A program made the translations under genes and the position numbers. From IMG/VR virus record IMGVR_UViG_2861079508_000001: a stretch of 64,000 bases of DNA. The stretch is one strand, 5' to 3'. The notes under the pieces were generated by a model, which saw only the letters and a list, made by a program, of their open reading frames with translations, was not told where the DNA came from and did no database searches. Source of the stretch: a virus. Taxonomy: Duplodnaviria > Heunggongvirae > Uroviricota > Caudoviricetes. Shown here piece by piece: positions 3,101 to 45,569 of the stretch (its first letter is position 1; each line of letters starts with the position of its first letter).

Positions 3101-4842
3101 CAGACACCGTTCAAAACAGGCGTTTCCGCTGACGACAGAGCTTTTGAAAACGTAACCTTTGTTATGTTTTCGCCAGTTTCAAGAACATCGCGCTCAACGA
3201 TTTTGCCTTCCTGATTCAATATCCGAATAAAGCTGCCGCTTTTAGCTAACGACACAGGCGCATCGAGAGTGATGCTGTTTTTGGTAAACTCCACAATTCG
3301 ACCGGAGTTACGTTTACCTGCACGATATTTGTTCTGAATCAGAACGGTTTCACCGGGCATCAGAAATGAGGCGTCTAAGCCGGCAGTAAATGTAATTACA
3401 TCCGACTCCATTCTGGCGGTATACAAAAGCCACAAACCAACTCGGTGAGCCTGGCCTCGGCTTGTACATCCAAATGCTACGACTTCTGTTTTACGCTCAC
3501 CATAACGGCGCATTGCGTCCTGATCTTCAACGTACTCGATGTTTTGCTTATAACCGTCCTCCTTGTTGTTGTAGGTTACGAGCGCAACGGATGGGCGATC
3601 TTTACGCGCAGAACCTTTATAGGTAAACAGTCCATCTTTGACGTTGGAGTTGGTAAACATCATTACTGGATCTGATGGGCTATCCTGCATGATGTTAACC
3701 ATGCCACCAGCCCAAAACACCATGCCGCGGAATGCACCGGCAATATCCTGAATTAATCGGTATGCGTCTTGTCGACTGGTGATCTGCGTATTGATTGCAA
3801 AGCGTTTCTCTTTACCCCCAAAGCCATCATCGACCTCTTCGTCACAATATCGACCAATCTGGTAGAGCTGGCCGAGGTCAATCATGGATTCCGACACAAA
3901 TTGCCCAAGACCATACCGAGTATTGGTAAGCAAATCGTAGAGAATCCACGCAGGGTTTGAAGAAGACAACAGCTTAAAAGTACCGTCCCATACGCCGACA
4001 TAAGTATTGGTGTATTCGTTGTCTCGGATTTTGATACCGCGCACCAAATACGAACGGGAAGGCATTGTGCTACCAAACTGCTCTGAATTGACCTTCAAGC
4101 CAACAAGAGCAGAGTTAGGGTAGTTCATTGGCGTGTCGACAATCTCACCTATGGAATCAACCCATGTGTCGTTGTAGAGGTACTGGCTACTGTTATCATC
4201 TGTAAGACGAATCACCCTAACCTTGTATGCACGACCAGGCTTAGGTAGTTTCAGCTCATAGCTACGGTAATACACGCCGGTTTTCTTTGCCGTTAGCGTG
4301 ATATCAACGCTTTTCTCACCTTCTGCCACTACATCAGAAAATGTTGCGTCTCCGTTGGCGATCTGGAATTTGTACTTCACCGTAGTGCCATTTGTATCGC
4401 CAGAGCTTTTATCAACGCTACGTAAAGAGGGGAATTTCATGATGACACGAACGCGATCAGCTTCATCGTTATCGATTGAAACCGTAACGTCGTGTGTTTT
4501 TTTAAGCTGAATATTTACGGACTTAGGCGTTTCGACAAAATCAAAACCAGCCATTGGCGTCTGGTCTTGTGAGCCGTCACGAAAATCCCATGTAATACCG
4601 CTGAAGTTGGAAGAGCCATCTTCATTCAAGATCGGTAAATCGTCGATGAAGATCGACTTTGCGCCATTTACCAGGCCACCGATAACCCCCTCGCCAAGAA
4701 GGTCGAGGATGGCTGCCATAGCACGAGAATTGACAGTATCATCAGCTTCAACCGGGGTACGGCTGGAGCTTTTACTTTTCTTGCCACCAGCACCGGCAAT
4801 AAGAAGCGGTAATTTTTTCTTCTTGAACTGTTCCATGTCCAA
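124..4842 (-). CDS. central tail fibre / host specificity protein (lambda gpJ-like), 1572 aa, with tandem coiled-coil repeats
   Basis: Size and position at the distal end of the tail module after I/K/L/M-like genes; about 14 tandem ~25-aa repeats (DISAAI..EQEAR..ALA.QI.QLQSKV). Confidence 0.8.
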   Translation of the reverse strand: MDMEQFKKKKLPLLIAGAGGKKSKSSSRTPVEADDTVNSRAMAAILDLLGEGVIGGLVNGAKSIFIDDLPILNEDGSSNFSGITWDFRDGSQDQTPMAGFDFVETPKSVNIQLKKTHDVTVSIDNDEADRVRVIMKFPSLRSVDKSSGDTNGTTVKYKFQIANGDATFSDVVAEGEKSVDITLTAKKTGVYYRSYELKLPKPGRAYKVRVIRLTDDNSSQYLYNDTWVDSIGEIVDTPMNYPNSALVGLKVNSEQFGSTMPSRSYLVRGIKIRDNEYTNTYVGVWDGTFKLLSSSNPAWILYDLLTNTRYGLGQFVSESMIDLGQLYQIGRYCDEEVDDGFGGKEKRFAINTQITSRQDAYRLIQDIAGAFRGMVFWAGGMVNIMQDSPSDPVMMFTNSNVKDGLFTYKGSARKDRPSVALVTYNNKEDGYKQNIEYVEDQDAMRRYGERKTEVVAFGCTSRGQAHRVGLWLLYTARMESDVITFTAGLDASFLMPGETVLIQNKYRAGKRNSGRIVEFTKNSITLDAPVSLAKSGSFIRILNQEGKIVERDVLETGENITKVTFSKALSSAETPVLNGVWTITEPDLEPMRVRIVNIAQGETSGSFDITAVENNPSKYEAIDNGATLIPQNTTVLDPTYSKPSNLQITEGTYLSSPGNLSVKLTATWEGKSPEYWISWRRSDENNVSNWQSARVTEEQYEIVNVAENGRYDFQLYAVSFNGKKTEIISTVYQVLGTMTPPDAPTSLTAVGDYRNVILNWVNPDSVDLDHINVYASQTNNLDTAKLIAESASTTFTHAGLGDSETWYYWVRASNKRGMLSPPNSNLGTEATTRDVLSFLAGKITSSELGQALLEDINSKASQEAVDELNEHINQSVESLEGSVNDVKEDIAELDKQFSDNLAGFEIKFNERSDALENAQTELKGEVSATIDKVNEAFEKIDATDAAIVEIENTVSEHDKALANTVEAIKAARDEAAALIAKESEARVEGDAANAKQLEVLQSTVEESSAAVEEMKKTVAEVDRASAELTTNIEALAKTNIDLALRQDEDQHKQMVNNAKIATTQKTFADDMSAMATKVEEIRVEIGEDIKASILEESTARADGDEALAKRVTQLQSKFEGDISAAISTEQEARTSADEALTTQITQLESKVSNDIVAAIKEEQEARATEDSALASQITQLQAKVDDDISAAIRSEQEARASGDSALAKQINQLQSKVDGDISAAITQEQEARASADQALSREINSLRAQTGTDIAAAVAVETKARTDADSALSTQISSLTAKANDLEASLARETTARADGDTALTKEVSSLKAQTAKDISAAVAVETQARTDADSALSSQITKLTSQYKEDIKAAVATETKTRTEQDAALATQITNLESQTAANISAAVTTETTARTQADNALSGRIDTLKAEVDGNTATIQQQATAIADTNKKVSTAWTLKMETSTSGGQKYVAGIALGIDTTGLSQFLVQADRFGLVNSVNGKITTPFVIENSIAYMNGAYIKDGTITNAKVGDLQSTNFVSGRSGWRFGKNGTLEINGNSGGNGRLVINGQRIDVYDDNNVLRVRIGLL
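590..1700. repeat. tandem ~75-bp in-frame repeats inside the tail fibre gene
   Basis: Periodic nucleotide and amino-acid repeat visible in the ORF translation and the DNA. Confidence 0.7.
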
Positions 4843-4853
4843 AAAATCCTTGA

Positions 4854-5444
4854 TTACATAAGCTGGTCGATGGTGATAGAAGAACTCACGACCTGTGAGC
4901 CAACTAAAATTTCCTCGCCATAGATAAGCTGTACAGGGTTCCCCTGGTTTGTTGTGTTTTGAGGTCCATCAAAGTAATAAGAGTTCGAGTTATCCGCCTG
5001 CCTCACACTTTCGTTAGTGGCTTGCGGAGATATGATTTGCGCTATACCGCCCATCATCAGTGACAAACCGAGAGGCGCAAGAGCGGGCACCCATATCGAG
5101 GCAACCATTAATACTGCTCCAACAACCGTCTGAAACCATCCAAAAGCAGATCCACCACTTCCTCGCGGAACAGGGGTAATGCGGATTTTTGCAATATTGT
5201 CAGACTGCCCCATCATCTGATATTCACTCTCGTCCACAGACCACTTGTGGCCCTGTTTATTGGTGATCTGGATGTGGTATCTGTCATAGGTTTTGATATT
5301 GCGCTTCATCCATGCTTTAAACCCAGGCTTGTTGGCCTCAATTAAATCCAGAGCCTGTTTTGTATTACGCACCTTTAGATGCCAGTGGCGGCCAAAATGT
5401 TTGGCCATAGGGCCGCCAAGCTGCACATGAACTAACTCAGACAC
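4854..5444 (-). CDS. tail assembly protein (lambda gpI-like)
   Basis: 196 aa, hydrophobic C-terminal region, position between K-like and J-like genes. Confidence 0.6.
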   Translation of the reverse strand: MSELVHVQLGGPMAKHFGRHWHLKVRNTKQALDLIEANKPGFKAWMKRNIKTYDRYHIQITNKQGHKWSVDESEYQMMGQSDNIAKIRITPVPRGSGGSAFGWFQTVVGAVLMVASIWVPALAPLGLSLMMGGIAQIISPQATNESVRQADNSNSYYFDGPQNTTNQGNPVQLIYGEEILVGSQVVSSSITIDQLM

Positions 5445-11173: not shown

Positions 11174-11500
11174 ATGACTAAAAATACTCGTTTTTCCCCC
11201 GAAGTCCGTCAGAGGGCGATTCGTATGGTTCTGGAAAGTCAGGGCGAATATGACTCACAGTGGGCGGCAATTTGTTCCATTGCCCCAAAGATTGGCTGTA
11301 CACCGGAGACTCTGCGTGTCTGGGTACGCCAGCATGAGCGGGATACCGGAGGCGGTGATGGCGGGCTCACCACCGCTGAACGTCAGCGTCTGAAAGAGCT
11401 GGAACGTGAAAATCGTGAACTGCGCCGCAGTAACGATATCCTTCGCCAGGCTTCCGCTTATTTTGCGAAGGCGGAGTTCGACCGCCTCTGGAAAAAATGA
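11174..11500 (+). CDS. IS3-family transposase OrfA (HTH)
   Basis: 108 aa protein [26 protein letters not shown]... recognised as IS629-type OrfA. Confidence 0.9.
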
Positions 11501-12387
11501 TGCCACTGCTGGATAAGCTGCGTGAGCAGTACGGGGTCGGACCGCTATGCAGCGAACTGCATATTGCCCCGTCAACGTATTACCACTGTCAGCAACAGCG
11601 ACATCATCCGGATAAACGCAGTGCCCGTGCGCAGCGCGATGACTGGCTGAAGAAAGAGATACAGCGCGTATACGATGAAAATCATCAGGTGTACGGTGTG
11701 CGTAAAGTCTGGCGTCAGTTGTTACGGGAAGGTATCAGAGTGGCCAGATGCACTGTGGCACGTCTCATGGCGGTTATGGGACTTGCCGGTGTTCTCCGGG
11801 GTAAAAAGGTCCGTACGACCATCAGCCGGAAAGCCGTTGCCGCAGGCGACCGCGTAAACCGTCAGTTCGTGGCAGAACGACCTGACCAGCTGTGGGTGGC
11901 TGATTTTACTTACGTCAGCACATGGCGGGGCTTCGTCTATGTGGCGTTCATCATTGATGTGTTTGCCGGATACATCGTGGGGTGGCGGGTCTCATCGTCT
12001 ATGGAAACGACATTCGTGCTGGATGCTCTGGAGCAGGCGTTATGGGCCCGTCAACCGTCCGGCACAGTCCATCACAGTGATAAAGGTTCTCAGTATGTAT
12101 CGCTGGCCTACACACAGCGGCTTAAGGAAGCCGGATTACTGGCATCAACAGGAAGTACTGGTGACTCGTATGACAACGCGATGGCGGAGAGCATCAATGG
12201 CCTTTACAAAGCGGAGGTAATACACCGTAAGAGCTGGAAAAACCGGACAGAAGTGGAGCTGGCCACACTCACGTGGGTGGACTGGTATAACAATCGACGA
12301 TTGCTGGAAAGGCTGGGCCATATCCCACCGGCAGAAGCAGAAAAAGCTTATTATGCTTCCATCGGAAACGATGATCTGGCAGCCTGA
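11497..12387 (+). CDS. IS3-family transposase OrfB (DDE integrase domain)
   Basis: 296 aa, DDE-type catalytic domain, overlaps orfA stop. Confidence 0.9.
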
Positions 12388-29014: not shown

Positions 29015-29479
29015 ATGAAGTCTCCCATACTGTTCACTTTCTGTTCTAAAACTATCATGAAATACTCGCTTCTCCCTCTACTAACGTTACCAGTGTTGAT
29101 GCTTACCGCGTGCCAATCACGCCCAATATCAATCCATGACGCCAAACCAGCACCGCAGGCCAAAGTGTTCAAGTATCAAAGCGCAGCGCCAGCTACGTTG
29201 GTGGTAATGAGAGACACAGGTTTTGTAGGAGCTGGATGTGATGCTTCCATTTTCATCAACGGCGAAACTGTCGCAAAACTGGCTACAGGCGAAAAAGCGA
29301 CTTTCCATTTAAATGCCGGAGAATTAATTGTGGGTGCATCTCTTGAAGGTGCAGGTTTATGTGCTCTAAACCCCGCTCGTCAAGAGCGAGAAACGACTCT
29401 GAAGAATGGAGACACAAAAGCGTTCAGGGTGTTCACCAGCAATTCTGGTGACATCGACATTCTGCCAACAACTCTGTGA
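29015..29479 (+). CDS. lipoprotein (candidate superinfection exclusion protein)
   Basis: Signal peptide with lipobox LTAC; start may be internal Met (MKYSLL). Confidence 0.5.
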   Translation: MKSPILFTFCSKTIMKYSLLPLLTLPVLMLTACQSRPISIHDAKPAPQAKVFKYQSAAPATLVVMRDTGFVGAGCDASIFINGETVAKLATGEKATFHLNAGELIVGASLEGAGLCALNPARQERETTLKNGDTKAFRVFTSNSGDIDILPTTL

Positions 29480-29483
29480 TGAC

Positions 29484-30008
29484 ATGACAACCAAAGATAT
29501 TACCTACGGTATCCAAGCTGAACTCTGGCCGCGAGATTACACTAACGTTGAAAAACTACTGATGTTCTGGCGCAGAGAACAAATTCCTGTAAGGGTCACT
29601 CTCGAAGATGGCCAGGCGTTTTGCATGTACGTTTATGGCCTCATGCCATCTCGTAACAAAGTTGACCTTTGCCCAGCCCCTTTTGACAAAGAAAATCGTA
29701 TAAGGCTCCCACTTGAACGCATTAGTACAATTGAATCAGGTGTGGTTGACAGTATCGCTCACGATTTCAAAGGTCGACTAACAGTTCACCCTGATTATGT
29801 CGATAATCGGCCATCACGCCGCGATTTTTTTGCAATTTGCAACCAAGCCTACAAAGCAAACAAATCTATAAGGGTGTACATGGCGGATGGCCGTGAAATT
29901 GAGGGGGTGTCAGCAGGCGCAGATGCTTGTCAGGTTACACTACGTGTCGAGAACGGTAGAAAAATAGTTGTTTTGTTCGATTGGGTTGAACGAATTTTGC
30001 CTTTTTGA
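29484..30008 (+). CDS. hypothetical protein
   Basis: ORF 29406-30008 trimmed to first non-overlapping ATG (MTTKDITYG). Confidence 0.4.
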   Translation: MTTKDITYGIQAELWPRDYTNVEKLLMFWRREQIPVRVTLEDGQAFCMYVYGLMPSRNKVDLCPAPFDKENRIRLPLERISTIESGVVDSIAHDFKGRLTVHPDYVDNRPSRRDFFAICNQAYKANKSIRVYMADGREIEGVSAGADACQVTLRVENGRKIVVLFDWVERILPF

Positions 30009-32244: not shown

Positions 32245-32340
32245 ATGCAGCCGTTTCCCGAAAAAATCCTGGCCGTTCCCCGTCGGCTCATGAATACGTT
32301 CCTCGCCGTTTCTGAAAATTTCCCTGCGGCAGCTGGTGGC
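32245..32340. repeat. array of GCCGTTTCC(C/T)GAAAA-like repeats ending at a Chi octamer
   Basis: Three degenerate copies plus GCTGGTGG at about 32332-32339; related array at 35380-35520. Confidence 0.5.
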
Positions 32341-32375: not shown

Positions 32376-32858
32376 TTACACGCCATCAAGGATGTGGATG
32401 CGGTTGCTTGCGTATACATTCAGCATAAAGTTAGCGCAAAACAGTTTCCATGTATCAACGCCAGCGGTATACGTAATGTTTTTGCATTTAATTGCATTGT
32501 TGGCGATCCGCATCCCCTGCGATACTGCTTCATCGTCGGAAAATTTGAACGACGATTGAGTTTTAATCCAGACAGAAATCTGCGTAGCGAACTCAATCAG
32601 CTTGGACTGGCAGAATCGCCCGGAGCGCACCGGAAGGACGAACGTTCCGAATCCAGAATTTACCACATATGCTTTCTCAAATACCCGCGAGTAACGACGA
32701 TTGCCAATGATGTCGCGTGCAATAATGCATTTTTCTTGTGCTGACAGTTCTACCGTCTCATTGTCGCGCCATGCACCAAGTACTCGTTTTTCAATGTCAG
32801 AGAACGTTACAGCGATATTGCCATGTGCGGGTGCGTTTACAGTAGCGATAAAATTCAT
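32376..32858 (-). CDS. hypothetical protein
   Basis: 160 aa ORF preceded by promoter and motif. Confidence 0.5.
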   Translation of the reverse strand: MNFIATVNAPAHGNIAVTFSDIEKRVLGAWRDNETVELSAQEKCIIARDIIGNRRYSRVFEKAYVVNSGFGTFVLPVRSGRFCQSKLIEFATQISVWIKTQSSFKFSDDEAVSQGMRIANNAIKCKNITYTAGVDTWKLFCANFMLNVYASNRIHILDGV

Positions 32859-32876: not shown

Positions 32877-32933
32877 AATAACAAATTGTTTTCTTGTTGG
32901 TGTTAATTATCGTTGTACGAATAAGGCGTCAAA
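32877..32933 (-). promoter_or_regulatory. sigma70-like promoter (TTGACG - 16 bp - GATAAT) with downstream AACAA-N-TTGTT motif
   Basis: Hexamers on minus strand; palindrome between -10 and RBS. Confidence 0.5.
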
Positions 32934-33208
32934 GTGGAAAGTTGCGGTAGCCGGACGGGAACAGGTGGGTTTGTCGGTTGCCTGGAGGTAAGAGGTTGGT
33001 GTTATTAGCCTGAGGGAAACAGGATGGTCATTTAAGACCACCAATGCTGGTGGCCTTAATAATTATCGCCCGATTACGCTAAGGATCTTTTCCTCAACTG
33101 ATTTGTTGTTGCGACTAAACTGCCTTGCGTATCTGATGACAGAAGAGGCGTTTTGCTTTCTGACCATCTCGGCTCTTTCCTTCAGGCGTTTCTTGAAATC
33201 GCCCATAT

Positions 33209-33625
33209 TTACCACCAGGCGCAGAAGGTCAGTCTGTTATTGTGAAAGTCGTGGTTCTTAATCAGATCTTCCACAAGCTCTTTCAACTGCCCCACATCAT
33301 GCCAGTAACCTTCGTCGTACTCCTGACTGCCGAAGAAAAAACCTTCCCGAGTAGGCAAGTACTCTTCGCAATTGCTTTCGTTTATGTGCATCAAATGAGC
33401 TTTCAGAAGACAAATGTCATTCATCGTTAATTCTAAAAGCTCACAATTTTCGACTTCACCTACGTTGCGCTCCATCCACCCAACGAGCGCATTGAACTTA
33501 CGGAAGTAAGCAACCTGCTTTCTGGATGCCTCGTTATTCAGATCGTTTTTAGGCTGTGTCTCGATATAGATATCAAGTCCCATGATGGTTTCCTTATTAA
33601 CTTGCTTCAGTAAAATCATTTTCAC
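33209..33625 (-). CDS. hypothetical protein
   Basis: 138 aa ORF; likely true start a few codons inside. Confidence 0.45.
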   Translation of the reverse strand: MKMILLKQVNKETIMGLDIYIETQPKNDLNNEASRKQVAYFRKFNALVGWMERNVGEVENCELLELTMNDICLLKAHLMHINESNCEEYLPTREGFFFGSQEYDEGYWHDVGQLKELVEDLIKNHDFHNNRLTFCAWW

Positions 33626-33666
33626 AAATCAGATAAGGCAGAAAACAAATTGTTATCTGGCTTAAT

Positions 33667-33692
33667 AAAATGGCGCGGTTTACGCGCCATTT
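33667..33692. terminator. intrinsic terminator hairpin (AATGGCGCG-GTTTA-CGCGCCATT)
   Basis: Hairpin flanked by A/T runs, immediately after a TAA at about 33701. Confidence 0.5.
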
Positions 33693-33856
33693 AAAGAGGA
33701 TTAAGCGAATACGCTTTCAGGGATTAAGGTGTCGGCAGGAATGCCAGAGGTAATGCGCAGGCCGTACTGACCAATCCAGGTAGTGTTGGTATTCAGGCTG
33801 GAGGCGAATACGGTGTTAACCATATTCATCATGGTTTCAAACACCTCTTCATCAAC

Positions 33857-34096
33857 CTAGCGGAAGTAGTTCTCGATTTTCAGCAGCAGCGGGTCAGTTG
33901 CATCGAGAATGGACTGGTATTGAGTCGCGTACTCGCCGCCGGAGGCATCACCTTTACGCACGATCGTACTGGCCTGGACTTCGGCACCAGTTTCGGTGTT
34001 GTACGTAACAACGGTAATTTTTGCCACATTCTTACCTTCGGCGGTTTCAGAGGCATAGTAAACATCAACTGTCAGTTTTTCGCGTTTAACGGTCAT
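33857..34096 (-). CDS. hypothetical protein, apparently truncated (79 aa) by a premature TAG
   Basis: ORF ends at TAG; protein-like reading frame continues about 49 codons to a TAA at about 33701 followed by a terminator. Confidence 0.45.
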   Translation of the reverse strand: MTVKREKLTVDVYYASETAEGKNVAKITVVTYNTETGAEVQASTIVRKGDASGGEYATQYQSILDATDPLLLKIENYFR

Positions 34097-34221
34097 TTCA
34101 CTCTCCGTAGTGTATTGGTTATTTTTATATTCTATAATCGTAAGTATTTACTTACAATACAAAAAGCCCCGTAAGGATGGCGGGGCTGTCGTACTGTCGA
34201 CTAATTGCCACTTGCACATTA

Positions 34222-34533
34222 TCAGGCTATTGCCATCACTGATGCTCTCTGAATTTCTTGCTGGGCCACGCGGTTAACTTCCATCAAGGCCAGTTCGAGC
34301 TGATGTTCCGGCCACATTCTTTGAAACGCCATCCAGCCTTTTCCACGCTGGCGACGAACATTCATTACATAACGAGTAAAGGTGTTTTTATCGAAAGACA
34401 CCGCTGTTTCACGGAACAGACGAATAGAGGTTCCATTGGCAACGATGTCCAGCAAAGTTAATTGAGCAACCAGCGCAGGCTTCTCTTTTCTCTTCTGGTC
34501 TTTGTCCAGACCAAGAACCAATGATTTTTTCAT
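34222..34533 (-). CDS. hypothetical protein
   Basis: Start at MKKSLVLG with RBS GGAG; motif AAACAACTTGTTTTCT immediately upstream. Confidence 0.5.
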   Translation of the reverse strand: MKKSLVLGLDKDQKRKEKPALVAQLTLLDIVANGTSIRLFRETAVSFDKNTFTRYVMNVRRQRGKGWMAFQRMWPEHQLELALMEVNRVAQQEIQRASVMAIA

Positions 34534-34544
34534 CACAACTCCGT

Positions 34545-34560
34545 AAACAACTTGTTTTCT
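34545..34560. promoter_or_regulatory. palindromic motif AAACAACTTGTTTTCT
   Basis: between -10-like TATTAT and RBS of downstream gene. Confidence 0.45.
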
Positions 34561-34687
34561 CAATGGCGTAAATAATACCAATAAGAAAACGGCTACAAAG
34601 CATAATGATCAGGTGCATGAGCGATATGCAGGTTCTTCCCTGCGGCTACAGATTAAGTTAAGCCAGCAATGCTGGCTTTGGTTGGGA

Positions 34688-35017
34688 TTACGCGAATACC
34701 TCAAGAAACTCCTGAACGTCCCAATGCTGGACGAGGTGAAGATAGACCTTAGAAATCACGTCATTTTCGCTATCGCATGTGAAGTAGTACTTCTGGCTGC
34801 GGTTGTATGTGTCCACACAAAATTCGCTCATATCCATAAAGTCAGCATCATCACCCAGGTCGCTAATCATCAAAGCAGGTGCATCATCACGAGTCATCAG
34901 CTCCAGCACCCATCTTGAATTAATCAGAGTGGAAGACCAACCTTCCAGCTCATAAAACTGGTCAAACTCTTTTTGAGTCAATTTCTTAATTTGGTTGATG
35001 TCGATATTTGCAAACAT
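34688..35017 (-). CDS. hypothetical acidic protein
   Basis: Start at MFANIDINQ with RBS AAGGA. Confidence 0.5.
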   Translation of the reverse strand: MFANIDINQIKKLTQKEFDQFYELEGWSSTLINSRWVLELMTRDDAPALMISDLGDDADFMDMSEFCVDTYNRSQKYYFTCDSENDVISKVYLHLVQHWDVQEFLEVFA

Positions 35018-35029
35018 AAAGCAATCCTT

Positions 35030-35045
35030 AAACAAGATGTTTTCT
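35030..35045. promoter_or_regulatory. palindromic motif AAACAAGATGTTTTCT
   Basis: between -10-like GATAAT and RBS. Confidence 0.45.
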
Positions 35046-35379
35046 TAATGGTGTTATTATCGCAATAACGCACAGGCGAAAAAGGATTTTATTCCGGTGA
35101 ATGTGGTTTTGGCAGTGAGTTTTCAGGTTCAGTACAGAGTACACTTTTTACATTATTCTGATTTAGTGGCCGAAGATGGCTGGTGGGCAGAATAATCATC
35201 TCCCCGAAAACCTACTGAAATCGATTGTGACCCGTTGGCTGTCTGGCACAATTACGCTGTAACTGGGCATTCAGAGGGAATCCAGCGGTAAGTAGGTTCG
35301 CCTTCACGTGAGCGCCTCTCTTCTTCCCGCACATTACAGGTGGGTAGCCGCAACTCTCCCTCTCGCTATGCCGGTACGC

Positions 35380-35520
35380 CGCCGTTCCTGAACCGGCATC
35401 GAGCCTTTTCCCGAAATCCACACAGGCAACTCGACCGTTTCCCTGAAAACCTCCAGCCGTTCCCCGAAGGCAACCCAGCCGTTTCTGTAGCGGGATGCAA
35501 CCTTTTCCCTGTATGGACCG
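35380..35520. repeat. array of about 6 degenerate (G)CCGTTTCCC(T)GAA-like repeats
   Basis: Units at about 22-bp spacing read from sequence; Chi octamer at about 35179-35186 nearby. Confidence 0.5.
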
Positions 35521-35619
35521 AAGGCTGACCGTAGGGGTGTTACGGGGGATAAAATCAGGAGTTGAATAAATACGAAAAAGGAGGCGACACCCCTCCTTCC
35601 CTCCCCACTTATACATACC

Positions 35620-36580
35620 TGGCTTCTTCGCTATACATGTTGTGTTTTATCTGTCTCAACCTCTCTATAGGCGTTAATGCTCACTCCTTCCAGAATGTTC
35701 TATACGGCAACTATTTCTGTTGGTGAATTGGGTGTGTTGTTCTCTCTGTCGGTGTATGTGGTTTCGTTCGTTTTGCGGTGGTTCTTCTATGGGGTGTTCT
35801 CGTCGTTTTGGTGATTGTTCTTCTCCGTGTATGGAGTAATGGCAGGTGGGCGATTCCTTTCGTTGTTGTGTTTGAGTTGTTTGTCTGGAGTGTGTGAAAG
35901 GCTTTTGCAGTTATTCGTGTATTGGGTAATGGCATTTCCCGTGATTGTTGTGTTTCGTGTCTTTTGGGATTGAGAGAAACCTTGCGGTTACAGGCTTCGT
36001 TGGGGTTTCAGTGATTCTGGTGTTCTTCGCTGTTTGGGGAATGGCGTGTCGTGGGTATCGCGCGTATGAATGTTTTCGGATTGCCTGTGAAAGTTAGGTT
36101 GGTTGTCCGGTAGCCTGGGGAGAAGAGGTGGGTCTTTTCGGTAGCCTGCCATAAAGAGGTTGGTTGTTTTTGGAAATGGCATTTGTGTTATTTAGTTGTT
36201 TTGTTATGCCTGAAAATAAGTTGTTTATATGGTTGTGTAACGCAACGGGAGCGATTTTGAGCGTGTGTTTTTGTTGGTAGTGTGTTGGGTCGTCTGTGGT
36301 GAAAATTGGACGCTGTGGCGCTGTCTGCTGCGTAGAGTTACGGGTATAAGCAGTGATGTGTGAAAACGTCAATTTTTTAGACCAAATCGGGTGAAAGCGT
36401 TGATGTTTCGTTGATCTGTTATTCAGTTGTTTTCTTGATTGTATAAACAACTATAACTTATTGATATTTAAGGATGTGATTGCGGGTATGGAAGAAGAGT
36501 AGTGGCGATCAACGGATTCTTATAGAAAAGAATCAAATTGTGACCGCCATTATCAACTGATTGATTTGTTTACTTGTGTA
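35620..36580. repeat. ORF-free GT-rich, C-depleted region with degenerate repeats
   Basis: No ORF of 60 aa or more on plus strand; strong G+T skew; repeated GGNAATGGC and GGTAGCCTG...AGAGGTNGGT units. Confidence 0.6.
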
Positions 36581-37528: not shown

Positions 37529-37593
37529 AAACAATTTGTTTTCTTATATGACTTATTATCTCAATCAACAAAAGGTAGAAAACAAATTGTTTT
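37529..37593. promoter_or_regulatory. two inverted copies of AACAA-N-TTGTT motif; the second is split by the host-segment junction
   Basis: AAACAATTTGTTTTCT and AGAAAACAAATTGTTTT; the latter is completed by TTGTTTTCTAG at about 41159. Confidence 0.5.
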
Positions 37594-37633
37594 AGAGTTT
37601 GTTAAAGTCAGAAGGGGTTGTGTCTATATGAAA

Positions 37634-37676: not shown

Positions 37677-39710
37677 TTACTTAACCTGGTGGCCAGGTTT
37701 AGCACCAGCATCCGGGCTTAACAGGAAGATATCTTTCCCGCCGGGGCCAGCAGCCATCACCATGCCTTCAGAGATACCGAAGCGCATTTTACGTGGTGCC
37801 AGGTTAGCCACCATAATGGTGTGACGACCAATCAGTGCCTGTGGATCTGGATAAGCGGAACGGATGCCTGAGAAGACATTACGCTTTTCACCACCGAGAT
37901 CCAGCGTCAGGCGAAGCAGTTTGTCAGAACCTTCTACAAACTCTGCGTTTTCAATCAGCGCCACGCGCAGGTCAACTTTGGCGAAGTCGTCAAAGGTGAT
38001 AGTTTCCTGAATCGGGTCGTCAGCCAGTGGGCCAGTTACCGGTGCGGCTGTGGCTTTCACTTCTTCTTTGGATGCTTCCACCAGTGCTTCAACCTGCTTC
38101 ATATCGATGCGGTTATACAGTGCCTTGAACGGATTCACTTTATGGCCCAGCAGCGGTTGCTGGATACCATCCCAGGTCAGTTCTGTATTCAGGAATGCTT
38201 CTGCACGTTCAGTCAGTTTCGGCAGTACCGGTTTCAGGTACGTCATCAGCACGCGGAACAGGTTAATGCCCATAGAGCAAATCGCCTGCAGATCGGCATC
38301 GCGTCCTTCCTGCTTTGCCACCACCCACGGAGCCTGTTCATCAACATAGCGGTTAGCCAGGTCAGCCAGTGCCATGATTTCACGGATAGCTTTGCCAAAT
38401 TCGCGGCTTTCCCATGCTTCGCCAATCACTTCAGCGGCATCAGTAAAGGTTTTGTACAGTTGCGGGTCAGCCAGTTCGCTTGCCAGCACGCCGTCAAAAC
38501 GCTTGTTGATAAAGCCTGCATTACGGGAGGCCAGGTTAACCACTTTGTTAACGATATCGGCATTCACACGCTGAACGAAATCTTCCAGGTTGAGATCGAT
38601 ATCATCAATGCGCGAAGAGAGTTTCGCAGTGTAGTAGTAACGCAGGCTGTCGGCGTCAAAATGATTCAGCCAGGTGCTGGCTTTAATAAAGGTGCCGCGA
38701 GACTTGGACATCTTCGCGCCGTTCACCGTCACATAGCCGTGAACAAACAGGTTGGTCGGCTTGCGGAAGTTGCTGCCTTCCAGCATGGCAGGCCAGAACA
38801 GGCTGTGGAAGTAAACGATATCTTTGCCGATGAAGTGGTACAGCTCGGCGGTGGAGTCTTTCTTCCAGTATTCGTCGAAGCTGGTAGTGTCGCCGCGTTT
38901 GTCGCACAGATTCTTGAAGGAACCCATGTAGCCAATCGGCGCGTCCAGCCAGACGTAGAAGTATTTGCCCGGTGCGTTCGGAATTTCAAAACCGAAGTAA
39001 GGTGCGTCACGGGAGATATCCCACTGTTGCAGGCCAGATTCAAACCACTCCTGCATTTTGTTTGCCACCTGCTCCTGCAACGCACCGCTGCGGGTCCATG
39101 CCTGCAACATTTCGCTGAAAGAAGGCAGATCAAAGAAGAAGTGTTCGGAATCACGCATTACCGGTGTAGCGCCAGAAACCACTGATTTCGGCTCGATCAG
39201 TTCCGTCGGGCTGTATGTCGCGCCGCAGACTTCACAGTTATCGCCGTATTGATCCGGCGCTTTACATTTCGGGCATGTGCCTTTTACAAAACGGTCCGGC
39301 AGGAACATGCCTTTTTCCGGGTCGTACAGCTGAGAGATGGTGCGGTTTTTAATAAAACCGTTCTCTTTCAGGCGAGTATAGATAAGCTCGGACAACTGAC
39401 GGTTCTCTTCGCTGTGCGTCGAGTGATAGTTGTCATAGCTGATGTTAAAGCCTGCGAAATCAGTCTGATGTTCCTGACTCATTTCGCCAATCATCTGTTC
39501 CGGTGTGATACCAAGCTGCTGTGCTTTCAGCATGATTGGCGTACCGTGGGCATCGTCGGCACAGATGAAATTAACCTCGTGGCCGCGCATTCGCTGGTAA
39601 CGAACCCAGACATCAGCCTGGATGTGCTCCAGCATATGGCCGAGGTGGATTGAGCCGTTAGCGTACGGCAGCGCGCACGTCACCAGAATTTTCTTCGCGA
39701 CTTGGGTCAT
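37677..39710 (-). CDS. metG: methionine--tRNA ligase (enterobacterial host-type)
   Basis: 677 aa from [25 protein letters not shown] (HIGH motif), KMSKS motif, C-terminal tRNA-binding domain; near-identical to Escherichia MetG by recall. Confidence 0.95.
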
Positions 39711-39867
39711 AGTAGGCATTACTTCTTTGTAGTGAAAAGGGGCTTGATAGTAACAAAATGGCCTTATGTCTGCCATGTGATAACAGCATTTCTCATAAAT
39801 GATTAAATGTCGTAGCTGGAGTACACTACAAGGCGACAATTGCGCAAATTAAAATAAAGGAGACGGG

Positions 39868-40968
39868 ATGAGCGAGTCCAAATCGCCGGATGCCCTGAGA
39901 GCAATGGTAGCCGGTACGCTGGCTAATTTTCAGCACCCAACCCTGAAACACAACCTGACTACGCTTAAAGCGTTACACCATGTTGCGTTGATGGATGACA
40001 CACTGCATGTCGAACTAATCATGCCTTTCGTGTGGAATAAGCCTTTTGAAGACCTGAAAGAGCAATGTAGTGGTGATCTGCTCCGTATCACTGGCGCAAA
40101 GGCTATTGACTGGAAGCTGTCGTACAACATTGCCACGCTTAAGCGCGTCAAAAACCAACCAGGCATTAATGGCGTTAAGAACATTATCGCCGTCAGCTCA
40201 GGCAAGGGCGGCGTGGGTAAATCCTCCACGGCGGTAAACCTGGCACTGGCGTTGGCTGCTGAAGGTGCGAAAGTTGGTATTTTGGATGCCGATATCTATG
40301 GTCCATCAATTCCAACCATGCTGGGCGCGGAAAACCAACGTCCAACCTCACCGGACGGTACTCACATGGCACCTATCATGTCTCATGGCCTGGCAACCAA
40401 CTCTATTGGTTATCTGGTCACCGACGACAATGCAATGGTGTGGCGTGGACCGATGGCCAGCAAGGCGCTGATGCAGATGTTGCAGGAAACACTGTGGCCT
40501 GATCTGGACTATCTCGTTCTCGATATGCCACCGGGCACTGGTGATATTCAATTGACGCTGGCGCAGAACATTCCTGTAACTGGTGCGGTTGTGGTAACTA
40601 CGCCGCAAGACATCGCGCTGATCGATGCGAAGAAAGGCATTGTGATGTTCGAAAAAGTCGAAGTGCCGGTACTGGGTATCGTTGAAAACATGAGTGTGCA
40701 TATTTGCAGTAACTGCGGTCATCACGAGCCAATTTTTGGCACCGGTGGCGCACAGAAACTGGCCGAGAAATACAACACGCAGTTGTTAGGCCAAATGCCA
40801 CTTCATATCTCTCTTCGTGAAGATCTGGATAACGGAACACCAACCGTTATTAGTCGTCCAGATAGTGAATTTACGGCTATTTATCGTGACCTCGCAGATC
40901 GCGTTGCTGCCCAAATGTATTGGCAAGGTGAAGTAATACCTGGCGAAATCGCATTCCGCGCAGTGTGA
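39868..40968 (+). CDS. apbC: Fe-S cluster carrier ATPase ApbC/Mrp
   Basis: Walker [11 protein letters not shown] and CxxC motif CSNCGH; divergent from metG as in enterobacterial chromosomes. Confidence 0.95.
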
Positions 40969-44110: not shown

Positions 44111-44126
44111 AAATAATTTGTTTTCT
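44111..44126. promoter_or_regulatory. palindromic motif AAATAATTTGTTTTCT
   Basis: immediately upstream of methyltransferase gene. Confidence 0.45.
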
Positions 44127-44824: not shown

Positions 44825-44840
44825 AAACAAGTTGTTTTCT
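44825..44840. promoter_or_regulatory. palindromic motif AAACAAGTTGTTTTCT
   Basis: upstream of 44240-44806. Confidence 0.45.
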
Positions 44841-45552: not shown

Positions 45553-45569
45553 AAAACAAGTTGTTTTCT
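45553..45569. promoter_or_regulatory. palindromic motif AAAACAAGTTGTTTTCT
   Basis: upstream of 45104-45529. Confidence 0.45.

Follow-up and report, generated by a model that had tools for sequence, protein, structure and literature searches.

The 64,000-nucleotide stretch of viral DNA analyzed here (the window), an SSU5/pHCM2-type phage-plasmid ~97% identical to Escherichia phage Cyrano, carries a 25-bp two-part motif, GGTAGCCTG-N5/6-AAGAGGTGGGT (the unit), in three phased copies at each of two loci ~3 kb apart (locus 1, 32946-33028; locus 2, 36079-36164). The motif is conserved and evolves in step at both loci, which points to a putative docking site for one DNA-binding factor. At somewhat better than even confidence, we favor the reading that the units are double-stranded DNA sites for a single factor, which would be regulatory at locus 1 and would serve as an operator or roadblock, or in looping, at locus 2. 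To our knowledge, the regulatory circuitry of SSU5/pHCM2-type phage-plasmids is essentially unstudied; a literature search found no description of the motif or of the non-coding region that holds locus 2, and nothing relevant on SSU5 regulation or on FljA in phage-plasmids.

A 25-bp Unit Is Repeated at Two Loci

The window was scanned with the pattern GGTWGCCKG-N6-AVAGGTKGGT, allowing up to three mismatches and taking the expectation from shuffled sequences. Eight matches were obtained against 0.09 expected; six of the eight make up the two triplets, and all six lie on the plus strand. The half-sites are two different sequences (GGTAGCCTG and AAGAGGTGGGT on that strand) on either side of a free center of 4-5 bp, which makes the unit asymmetric. 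Successive units are 30 and 28 bp apart at locus 1 and 30 and 31 bp apart at locus 2, and in the complete Cyrano genome (108 kb) the unit is present only at the two loci, apart from one weak match within a MetRS-like gene. The copies lie where a preliminary description of this DNA had placed them, and the two arrays are the same element. That description had given locus 2 two units with similar flanks; both units are there, without a mismatch, but the flanks are in fact a third, degenerate unit (36079-36103) that had been overlooked, so that each locus has three copies. Outside the repeats, locus 1 and locus 2 share no similarity, the likeness being confined to two repeat families. A decayed segmental duplication was rejected on this ground and because a tblastn search of the ORF-free region around locus 2 with the 160-aa protein encoded beside locus 1 returned nothing.

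The Unit Is Conserved and Changes in Step at Both Loci

The preliminary description had proposed looking for the motif in relatives, where its conservation proves strong: both arrays are kept across six genera, in relatives from Escherichia, Salmonella, Klebsiella, Enterobacter, Kluyvera and Buttiauxella. Information content, computed on 102 distinct unit copies from 95 viral contigs, is ~1-2 bits at each of positions 1-9 and 15-25, except position 17 (0.73 bits), and 0.26-0.82 bits at positions 10-14; position 15 is conserved despite having been left free in the search pattern. The half-sites are thus near-invariant and the center of the unit freely variable, in surrounding non-coding DNA that is merely 65-73% identical. 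Two divergent genomes, L122 and L127, have the half-site ACCCACCTCTT changed to ACCACCCAA(A/C), and they have it at both loci; the main lineage and L126 carry ACCCACC at both. Conserved half-sites, a free center and the same change at both loci together argue that the units are read as double-stranded DNA, by one factor acting in trans.

The repeat period of L122 is 36 bp at locus 1 and 36, 25 and 29 bp at locus 2. The weight of the concerted half-site change is limited in that it may have arisen only once, should L122 and L127 be sister lineages. The distance between the loci ranges from 1.4 to 4.2 kb in relatives, and the core arrangement persists even with one intervening gene. The non-coding region is carried by 838 plasmids in PLSDB; large IncFIB/IncHI1B Klebsiella plasmids that share some of it have only an IS-flanked fragment and are uninformative. 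Plasmid pMT1 keeps locus 1 and the 160-aa gene and lacks locus 2 together with the whole ORF-free region; it is a stable plasmid despite this, and locus 2 thus appears dispensable for plasmid maintenance.

Locus 1 Lies Upstream of a Weak-Looking Promoter

The features of locus 1, in the order of leftward transcription, are as follows (the units are entered on the minus strand, in the leftward direction).

33034-33057, minus strand: terminator-like hairpin of the upstream leftward gene, from sequence reading; directly before the locus-1 units
33046-33053, plus strand: Chi sequence GCTGGTGG, inside this hairpin
33004-33028, minus strand: distal unit, degenerate (3 mismatches), at ~-105 to -129 from the inferred start
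32976-33000, minus strand: central unit, 0 mismatches, at ~-77 to -101; a perfect copy in every relative
32946-32970, minus strand: proximal unit, 0 mismatches in the window, at ~-47 to -71
32906-32933, minus strand: predicted promoter of the 160-aa gene, inferred start ~32899
32880-32894, minus strand: AGAAAACAAnTTGTT motif at the 5' end of the predicted mRNA, invariant at this promoter
32376-32858, minus strand: conserved 160-aa gene (phrog_1641, no Pfam family), downstream of the locus-1 promoter
32251-32287, minus strand: two GGGAAAMGG-type repeats at 22-bp spacing, just past the 160-aa gene

The view that locus 1 lies directly upstream of a promoter is borne out, the promoter elements being conserved in all relatives. 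The hairpin position ahead of the array is kept in most relatives, with a strong GC hairpin and a T6 tail in L122. The -10 reads GATAAT (32911-32906) without an extended -10 TG, and the -35 zone can be read as TTGACG (32932-32927, 15-nt spacer) or as TTTGAC (16-nt spacer); our consensus scanner missed this promoter because of its spacing. The CGATAATTAA block is invariant in 8 relatives, and the -35 is variable and weak. An extended TGn occurs in 4 of the 7 sibling leftward promoters and never at that of the 160-aa gene. With no extended -10 and a poor or mis-spaced -35, this promoter is, judged by its elements, weak on its own. In RNA-seq of a Cyrano lysogen, expression of the 160-aa gene is only moderate. 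The AGAAAACAAnTTGTT motif is a separate family common to many early promoters (25 matches in the window vs 3.6 expected), and the GGGAAAMGG pair belongs to the same family as an array beyond locus 2, described below.

The spacing between array and promoter varies among clades. The proximal unit is degenerate in SSU5, pHCM2 and the Klebsiella and Enterobacter relatives, and the same relatives have 7 additional nt before the -35, so that, from one clade to another, the best-conserved unit stands 7 bp nearer to or farther from the -35. Class I activator sites lie on a fixed helical face upstream of the -35, centered at, for example, -61.5, -71.5, -82.5 or -92.5; the unit centers of the window's clade fall at ~-59, -89 and -117 from the inferred start; the other clades are displaced by 7 bp, with the best unit at ~-96. 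Taken with the repeat periods of L122, this shift suggests that a strict helix-face contact with RNA polymerase has not been kept, and it makes a simple activator model less likely.

Locus 2 Lies in a Non-coding, C/A-Rich Region

Locus 2 is inside a 1.4-kb non-coding C/A-rich region dense in other conserved repeats, whose features, again leftward, are listed here.

36427-36443, minus strand: promoter-like TACAAT (36443-36438), then AAGAAAACAA (36436-27), at the ORF-free region's right edge
36343-36372, minus strand: conserved promoter-like block TTGACG (36372-36367)-17-TTATAC(C), upstream of locus 2
35602-36350, minus strand: non-coding C/A-rich stretch holding the locus-2 units; leftward-transcribed strand 31% C, 15% G, 40% A
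36215-36225, no strand: AACAAnTTGTT-type palindrome (AATAAGTTGTT in the window), in the conserved block TATAAACAAnTTGTTTTCAGG..AAGAAAACAA, ~50 bp upstream of the locus-2 units
36140-36164, minus strand: first unit, 0 mismatches
36109-36133, minus strand: second unit, 0 mismatches
36079-36103, minus strand: third unit, degenerate, 3 mismatches
~36184-36165, 36048-36022, 35937-35911 and 35845-35817: four copies of a ~27-nt repeat, GCCATTACyCAATACACGGAGAAGAAC, in 35602-36350
35575-35601, minus strand: terminator-like hairpin AGGAGG-7-CCTCCT + T5, weaker in other relatives
35376-35510, minus strand: GGGAAAMGG(CTGG) array of 6-7 repeats, spaced 22, 31, 22 and 44 bp, in a 60% G+C patch

The TTGACG-17-TTATAC block, whose -10 is non-canonical because its final T is missing, received no call from the consensus promoter scanner; it is conserved in 10 aligned relatives, with a variable 17-nt spacer, and is also present in the divergent genomes L122, L126 and L127. 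Its 72 instances (17 variants) lie 210-240 bp before the first locus-2 unit. The GGGAAAMGG(CTGG) array lies ~600-660 bp beyond the units, a layout that mirrors locus 1. The ORFs called here (118 aa, 36094-36450; 134 aa, 35212-35616) were rejected as coding, since neither frame, strand nor position is conserved, and in none of the 40 plasmid records listed, among the 838 that carry the region, does an annotated CDS fall under it. There is no Rfam match at the gathering threshold or at E<=1. In the Cyrano lysogen RNA-seq, which covers lysogeny only, the called ORF overlapping the locus-2 units has the lowest value of the table. A leftward transcript through the ORF-free region, as the preliminary description had proposed, is plausible; its origin would be moved from the units to the promoter-like blocks upstream of them (36372-36344 and ~36443-36427).

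Putative Sites for One DNA-Binding Factor

We propose that a sequence-specific factor, most likely encoded by the phage-plasmid, reads both loci. The spacing within an array of up to three units corresponds to about three turns of the helix, which would allow several molecules of the factor to occupy neighboring units. The locus-1 array, between the terminator of the preceding gene and the weak promoter, would most likely set the activity of the 160-aa gene promoter, and the sign of this regulation may be either activation or repression. At locus 2, the array would fall, 210-240 bp past the promoter-like block, in the leader of a C-rich transcription unit that is long and non-coding; the factor could act there as an operator or roadblock on leftward transcription, as a long-range partner of locus 1, or as both. 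The layout resembles that of lambda OL/OR, with three adjacent sites per locus and two loci a few kilobases apart in a temperate phage, one of them adjoining a promoter; this likeness makes cooperative binding and looping plausible. The operators of lambda are near-palindromic 17-bp sites lying over divergent promoters, whereas here the units are 25-bp asymmetric direct repeats that lie upstream of a promoter at locus 1 and 210-240 bp past a promoter-like block at locus 2.

Proteins encoded nearby were considered as binders. The winged-helix-like 216-aa neighbor is a weakened candidate: Serratia plasmids have this protein and AACAAnTTGTT but no units, so the protein tracks the palindrome rather than the units. 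A homolog of FljA is encoded 3 kb away and is an unlikely binder, because FljA is an mRNA-binding repressor. Autoregulation by the 160-aa protein found no support; its structure model is confident, but matched no known fold and no Pfam family.

Alternative Readings of the Arrays

The arrays might instead be initiator sites of a lytic replication origin and its distant enhancer, the ORF-free region being an origin activated by transcription from the promoter-like block. In satellite phage P4, ori and crr are two clusters of alpha-protein sites 4.5 kb apart, and the P4, P1 incC/incA and R6K systems share with the present arrays a short repeat clustered at two places kilobases apart, with about three copies each in fixed orientation. 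The two clusters described here likewise lie 1.4-4.2 kb apart in the same orientation, in a large conserved non-coding region that has promoter-like blocks and an iteron-like second repeat family (~22-bp period); a replisome of its own and T4-like UvsW, UvsY and gp32-like proteins are encoded by the element, and the dispensability of locus 2 in pMT1 would be compatible with a role in lytic growth only. The hallmarks of an origin are nevertheless missing: DnaA boxes are absent from the region, GATC sites are depleted and not clustered, there is no skew switch, and no marked AT-rich unwinding block lies beside the arrays. Unlike P4-type systems, the region has no recognized initiator gene nearby, and one cluster, locus 1, is in a classical promoter-upstream position and is kept in pMT1 with the 160-aa gene. 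We consider an origin rather unlikely.

Action at the RNA level is improbable. Here the units would be single-stranded C/A-rich motifs (ACCCACCUCUU...CAGGCUACC) in a long leftward transcript, bound by a protein or pairing with another RNA. Their orientation is always that of transcription, locus 2 is within a probable non-coding transcript (31% C, 15% G), and the FljA homolog has a weak Hfq-like match; to our eye, ACCCACCUCUU may resemble the anti-Shine-Dalgarno end of 16S rRNA. Locus 1, however, follows a terminator hairpin (in L122, a strong intrinsic terminator) and precedes a promoter, a position that speaks against transcribed units. A structured RNA or a known RNA family was rejected: there is no consensus fold (-2.98 kcal/mol, 0 compensatory pairs; single-sequence z-score -0.94), and the lack of an Rfam family extends to E<=1. 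A free center of fixed length between two long invariant blocks, with units of the main lineage phased at 28-31 bp, is what duplex DNA sites typically show.

We also give little chance to the preliminary description's own model, a duplicated activator-binding or UP-like module in which each array would lie just upstream of its own promoter and a second leftward transcript would start near 36.1 kb. The position of locus 1, upstream of the -35 of a weak-looking promoter, resembles that of UP elements and class I sites of sigma-70 promoters, and, with respect to leftward transcription, the two arrays point the same way. Locus 2 does not fit: in the 60-80 bp after its units, no -10 or -35 is conserved in 10 aligned relatives, the consensus scanner likewise found none there, the next conserved block is a GCCATTACCC repeat, and the conserved promoter-like blocks are upstream of the units instead of after them. 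The proposed start near 36.1 kb thus finds no conserved hexamers to serve it. The order of elements is also reversed, from units, promoter and AACAAnTTGTT at locus 1 to promoter, AACAAnTTGTT and units at locus 2, and on this sequence context the locus-2 array is not a promoter-upstream module. UP elements are A/T-rich, occupy about -40 to -60 and contact the alpha C-terminal domain of RNA polymerase, whereas the units are G+C-rich and the arrays extend from ~-47 to -129, close to -130; composition and extent both led us to reject this identification. Class I sites differ in addition by the 7-bp distance shift. What survives is the notion of a protein-binding module, which the conservation pattern fits; an activator-binding module at both loci is not supported, as no conserved promoter follows the locus-2 units.

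Centromere-like or other maintenance sites (partition or copy number, as with P1 incC/incA iterons or the parC of type Ib/II systems) are very improbable: direct-repeat arrays at two loci, one beside a promoter, would suit an element that lives as a plasmid, but no unit is near parA in Cyrano, the nearby "MinD" is an Mrp/NUBPL Fe-S ATPase, and pMT1 persists as a stable plasmid although it lacks locus 2 and the whole ORF-free region, so that a partition site was rejected. RepA iterons were rejected as well, since they differ in sequence (CTCaCTAyAGTGGATA) and location, flanking repA on both sides ~33 kb away in Cyrano, where no unit is found. The IncFIB pHCM2/pKPHS1-type replicon is reported to have iterons downstream of repA (PMC6735626). 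Direct-repeat arrays upstream of several promoters, where they serve both as operator and as centromere and are recognized by a single small protein, are also a feature of the pSM19035 omega heptads, ParR/parC and TubR/tubC. In those systems the repeats are 6-12 bp, contiguous and beside the par operon, whereas the units here are 25 bp long, spaced at 28-31 bp and away from parA, and locus 2 is dispensable for maintenance.

Implications for Phage-Plasmid Biology

On the preferred reading, of sites for one DNA-binding factor, the arrays flag a cis-regulatory system that is conserved and for which a DNA probe can be defined, so that the putative factor could be fished directly by DNA pull-down. 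They would offer a handle on the control of early genes or of lytic replication in the plasmid-to-phage switch of SSU5/pHCM2-type phage-plasmids, which are common in clinical Escherichia, Klebsiella, Salmonella and Enterobacter. More speculatively, and at a confidence well below even, the unit arrays, the paired GGGAAAMGG arrays and the 1.4-kb C/A-rich region may form one previously undescribed control hub, in which a dedicated factor would bridge the loci and switch a long C-rich non-coding transcription unit; lytic replication, or else the variable block of early genes that lies between the arrays, would be switched along with it. If true, this hub would represent a lysis/lysogeny or lytic-origin switch of a new kind, specific to a clinically widespread plasmid family.

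A Two-Part Unit Repeated at Two Loci

A scan of the window with the pattern GGTWGCCKG-N6-AVAGGTKGGT (≤3 mismatches, shuffles as control) returned 8 matches against 0.09 expected from the shuffles. Six of the eight make up two plus-strand triplets of a 25-bp unit, so the repetition at two loci is real.

Unit arrays in the window
32946, 32976 and 33004 (+): unit starts of locus 1, spaced 30 and 28 bp
36079, 36109 and 36140 (+): unit starts of locus 2, spaced 30 and 31 bp

The preliminary description had counted three copies and two; those five units are right, but locus 2 holds a third, and the "similar flanks" seen there are this sixth, degenerate unit. In the complete genome of Escherichia phage Cyrano (SSU5-like phage-plasmid pLF82, E. 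coli LF82), which is 97% identical over 32.5-36.7 kb, the unit occurs at these two loci only, apart from a single weak match within the MetRS-like gene. At the DNA level, the same region is also recognizably similar to Salmonella phage SSU5, to pHCM2, and to phage-plasmids of Klebsiella and Enterobacter. Both arrays lie within a run of small minus-strand (leftward) genes without known function, adjoined by a ~1.4-kb stretch in which annotations are inconsistent small ORFs or none. One of the window's genes, a phrog_2473 copy at 33701-34096 (-), has an in-frame TAG at codon 80 (the Cyrano homolog is 131 aa) and is a pseudogene or needs suppression. Outside the repeats we found no similarity between loci 1 and 2, and no trace in the ORF-free region of the 160-aa protein encoded behind the locus-1 promoter; the loci, alike in repeats only, are therefore not a decayed segmental duplication.

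Conservation and Concerted Change

Conservation of the motif, one of the checks proposed for it, was found throughout: all relatives examined carry both arrays with orientation kept (SSU5, pHCM2, PhiR41_1, the Klebsiella phages pJN2-26 and ST13-OXA48phi12.3, two plasmids of Enterobacter hormaechei, and two more E. coli plasmids). Arrays also occur in 95 IMG/VR contigs and in genomes of Kluyvera, Buttiauxella, and Yersinia pestis (locus 1 only in Y. pestis pMT1), and four singleton matches in unrelated phyla are at chance level for the 596 Gb searched. Locus 1 holds one to three copies and locus 2 two or three; of 163 close pairs, 160 are spaced 28-31 bp, and the inter-locus distance is 1.4-4.2 kb. 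A position-frequency table of 102 distinct copies has information-rich blocks at positions 1-9 (GGTAGCCTG) and 15-25 (AAGAGGTGGGT) and an information-poor center (positions 10-14); position 15 is conserved despite being free in the search pattern, and identity of the flanking noncoding DNA in these comparisons is no more than 65-73%. A bipartite, asymmetric site for protein binding on duplex DNA would be expected to show this pattern.

Divergent family members were found via homologs of a neighboring gene. In two of these genomes, L127 and L122 (Klebsiella quasipneumoniae), both loci have ACCACCCAA(A/C) in place of the half-site ACCCACCTCTT (minus-strand reading) and retain the CAGGCTACC-type half, while ACCCACC stands at both loci in the main lineage and in a third genome, L126. 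The same variant at both loci within each genome is what would be expected if one trans-acting factor reads both. Should L122 and L127 be sister lineages, the concerted change may go back to just one evolutionary event. In L122, locus 1 has a 36-bp period and locus 2 has periods of 36/25/29 bp; three-turn phasing is therefore confined to the main lineage. Two Klebsiella IncFIB/IncHI1B plasmids (L009 and L010), which are large and not phage-plasmids, carry at about 4720-5350 a ~600-bp piece of the ORF-free region, with two units and a promoter-like block, beside an IS remnant.

Locus 1 and Its Promoter

Reading leftward, every relative has the same order: a hairpin closing the previous gene, the units, a weak -35, the -10, an invariant AGAAAACAAnTTGTT, an RBS, and the ATG of the 160-aa gene, itself conserved.

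Promoter elements of the 160-aa gene
-35: TTTGAC or TTGACG in the window, TTGGAC elsewhere; weak
32911-32906 (-): -10 GATAAT within CGATAATTAA, invariant among relatives

With the start site placed by inference at about 32899, the three units span roughly -47 to -129. Among the window's seven leftward promoters of this class, four have an extended -10 (TGnGATAAT or TGnTATTAT); because none of the relatives has one at locus 1, this promoter should be weak by itself, which would fit control from the upstream array. A consensus promoter scanner did not call it, owing to spacing, and the putative promoter is supported by comparative evidence. Outside the E. coli clade, the proximal unit of the relatives is degenerate and the distance from units to -35 is 7 bp longer, which would speak against simple activation from one fixed face of the helix. 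CYRAN_111 (the downstream 160-aa gene) has, in the transcriptome of the Cyrano lysogen, a normalized value of 25.5, compared with 57-58 for genes that the transcriptome authors give as six-fold above background. Four Chi sites (GCTGGTGG or complement; 32208, 32332, 33046, and 35179) fall in 3 kb around both loci, one of them inside the terminator hairpin adjoining locus 1; the window has 16, about the density of the E. coli chromosome.

Locus 2 and the ORF-Free Region

The units had been proposed as a promoter-upstream module at both places; the conserved order bears this out at locus 1, but the element order at locus 2 is different, and no conserved promoter follows the units.

Elements around locus 2 and the second repeat family
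About 36443-36427, leftward: promoter-like TACAAT then AAGAAAACAA, before the units
36372-36343, leftward: TTGACG, 17 variable nt, TTATAC(C), strongly conserved, before the units
About 36240-36195: conserved TATAAACAAnTTGTTTTCAGG..AAGAAAACAA block, before the units
35601-35575: hairpin, a good terminator in the window, weaker in relatives
35510-35376, minus-strand reading: six or seven GGGAAAMGG repeats, spaced 22/31/22/44 bp
32287-32251, minus-strand reading: GGGAAAMGG pair, 22 bp apart, behind the 160-aa gene in all relatives

The TTGACG...TTATAC block was found 72 times in 17 sequence variants, at a distance of 210-240 bp to the first unit, and is kept in divergent lineages too; the scanner did not call it, and its -10 is noncanonical. 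Past the units, neither a -10 nor a -35 is conserved; what comes next in the alignment is the conserved ~27-nt repeat GCCATTACCC (GCCATTACyCAATACACGGAGAAGAAC; 4-6 copies in 35602-36350), and the promoter suggested near 36.1 kb is therefore unsupported. Leftward transcription across the ORF-free region is still plausible, but would start upstream of the locus-2 units, where the conserved promoter-like blocks lie, rather than near them. In lysogen RNA, CYRAN_103, which overlaps these units, has the table minimum of 4.99, common to other silent genes, and CYRAN_104, further left, has 14.

The ORF-free region is noncoding. ORFs of ≥70 aa vary in position, frame, and strand across ten relatives; no CDS is annotated under it in the 40 plasmid records listed of the 838 carrying the region; and Rfam gave no match there, even at E≤1. 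Elsewhere in the window, a full-length Rfam match (120 bits) to the ALIL pseudoknot RF01497 at 11455-11571 (+) suggests an insertion sequence around it. From 36350 to 35602, the leftward-transcribed strand consists of C (31%), A (40%), and little G (15%). Keto/amino bias between the strands is extreme in this stretch, with GC skew reaching +0.55 and AT skew falling to -0.6; such C-rich, G-poor composition is that of a Rho-utilization region. Both loci combine the two repeat families in one order in all relatives, units first and GGGAAAMGG 600-700 bp later. The core CGTTTCC of the latter (plus strand) recalls the lambda cosB R sites.

Alternative Readings

A lytic origin with a phage-specific initiator is the alternative that survives best, in weakened form: the hallmarks of a host-type origin are absent, with no DnaA boxes and no skew switch, and GATC is depleted (2 in 1.6 kb versus 4.5 per kb in the window). 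A need for locus 2 in plasmid replication or inheritance is excluded by Y. pestis CO92 pMT1 (3254-4881), which keeps locus 1 and the 160-aa gene and has lost the ORF-free region with locus 2; the loss is an IS1541-associated deletion that joins the 160-aa gene and locus 1 almost directly to SbcCD-like genes and removes much else. RepA iterons are ruled out, as Cyrano repA lies ~33 kb away, outside the window, flanked by CTCaCTAyAGTGGATA repeats, in agreement with the iterons next to repA reported for this replicon type (PMC6735626). A partition link fails, since no unit lies near parA and the "MinD" neighbor is an Mrp/NUBPL-type ATPase. That gene (39868-40968, +; "MinD" in the Cyrano annotation) encodes an ApbC-like Fe-S cluster ATPase and adjoins a methionyl-tRNA synthetase-like gene (37677-39839), a pair unusual for a phage-plasmid. 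Structured RNA is dismissed by a consensus energy of -3 kcal/mol, no compensatory pairs, and a single-sequence z-score of -0.9, and the "UP-like" character first ascribed to the units is contradicted by their composition and extent.

Candidate Factors and Proposed Role

The neighboring small proteins all lack a Pfam family, and no function is assigned to their PHROG families. Across the window, AGAAAACAAnTTGTT (palindromic core AACAAnTTGTT) is found 25 times versus 3.6 expected, usually directly past the -10 of small early genes, and is therefore either an operator or a 5'-UTR element.

Examples of AGAAAACAAnTTGTT in the window
32880-32894, 33640-33658, 34546-34560, 35031-35045, 36427-36436
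37530-37595, 44112-44126, 44826-44840, 45555-45569

Homologs of the neighboring 216-aa winged-helix-like protein accompany it even in Serratia Rep_3 plasmids, which are unrelated, making this protein a candidate reader of AGAAAACAAnTTGTT. Because the Serratia plasmids pair a 63% identical homolog with 8-11 AGAAAACAAnTTGTT sites and lack the units, the GGGAAAMGG repeats, and the 160-aa gene, the palindrome appears a likelier target of this protein than the units. The product annotated as "transcriptional regulator" (29406-30008, +) is a homolog of FljA (Pfam Flag1_repress, PF03614, E 2.5e-84), an mRNA-binding translational repressor, and its C-terminus matches Hfq weakly, below threshold; FljA is unmentioned in the searched literature on SSU5-type phage-plasmids.

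As a whole, the original observation is confirmed and extended, to triplets at both loci and to conservation among relatives. The best-supported reading is that the units are putative duplex-DNA binding sites for one factor reading both loci. The closest paradigms are the lambda OL/OR operator triplets, P4 ori/crr, and multi-locus arrays such as the pSM19035 omega sites, but each fails at least one tested defining feature, and the two-locus element appears to be undescribed so far. At locus 1, the array would probably regulate the weak promoter of the 160-aa gene, by activation or by repression; at locus 2, the bound factor may act as operator, roadblock, or, through putative looping, bridge inside a noncoding transcription unit.
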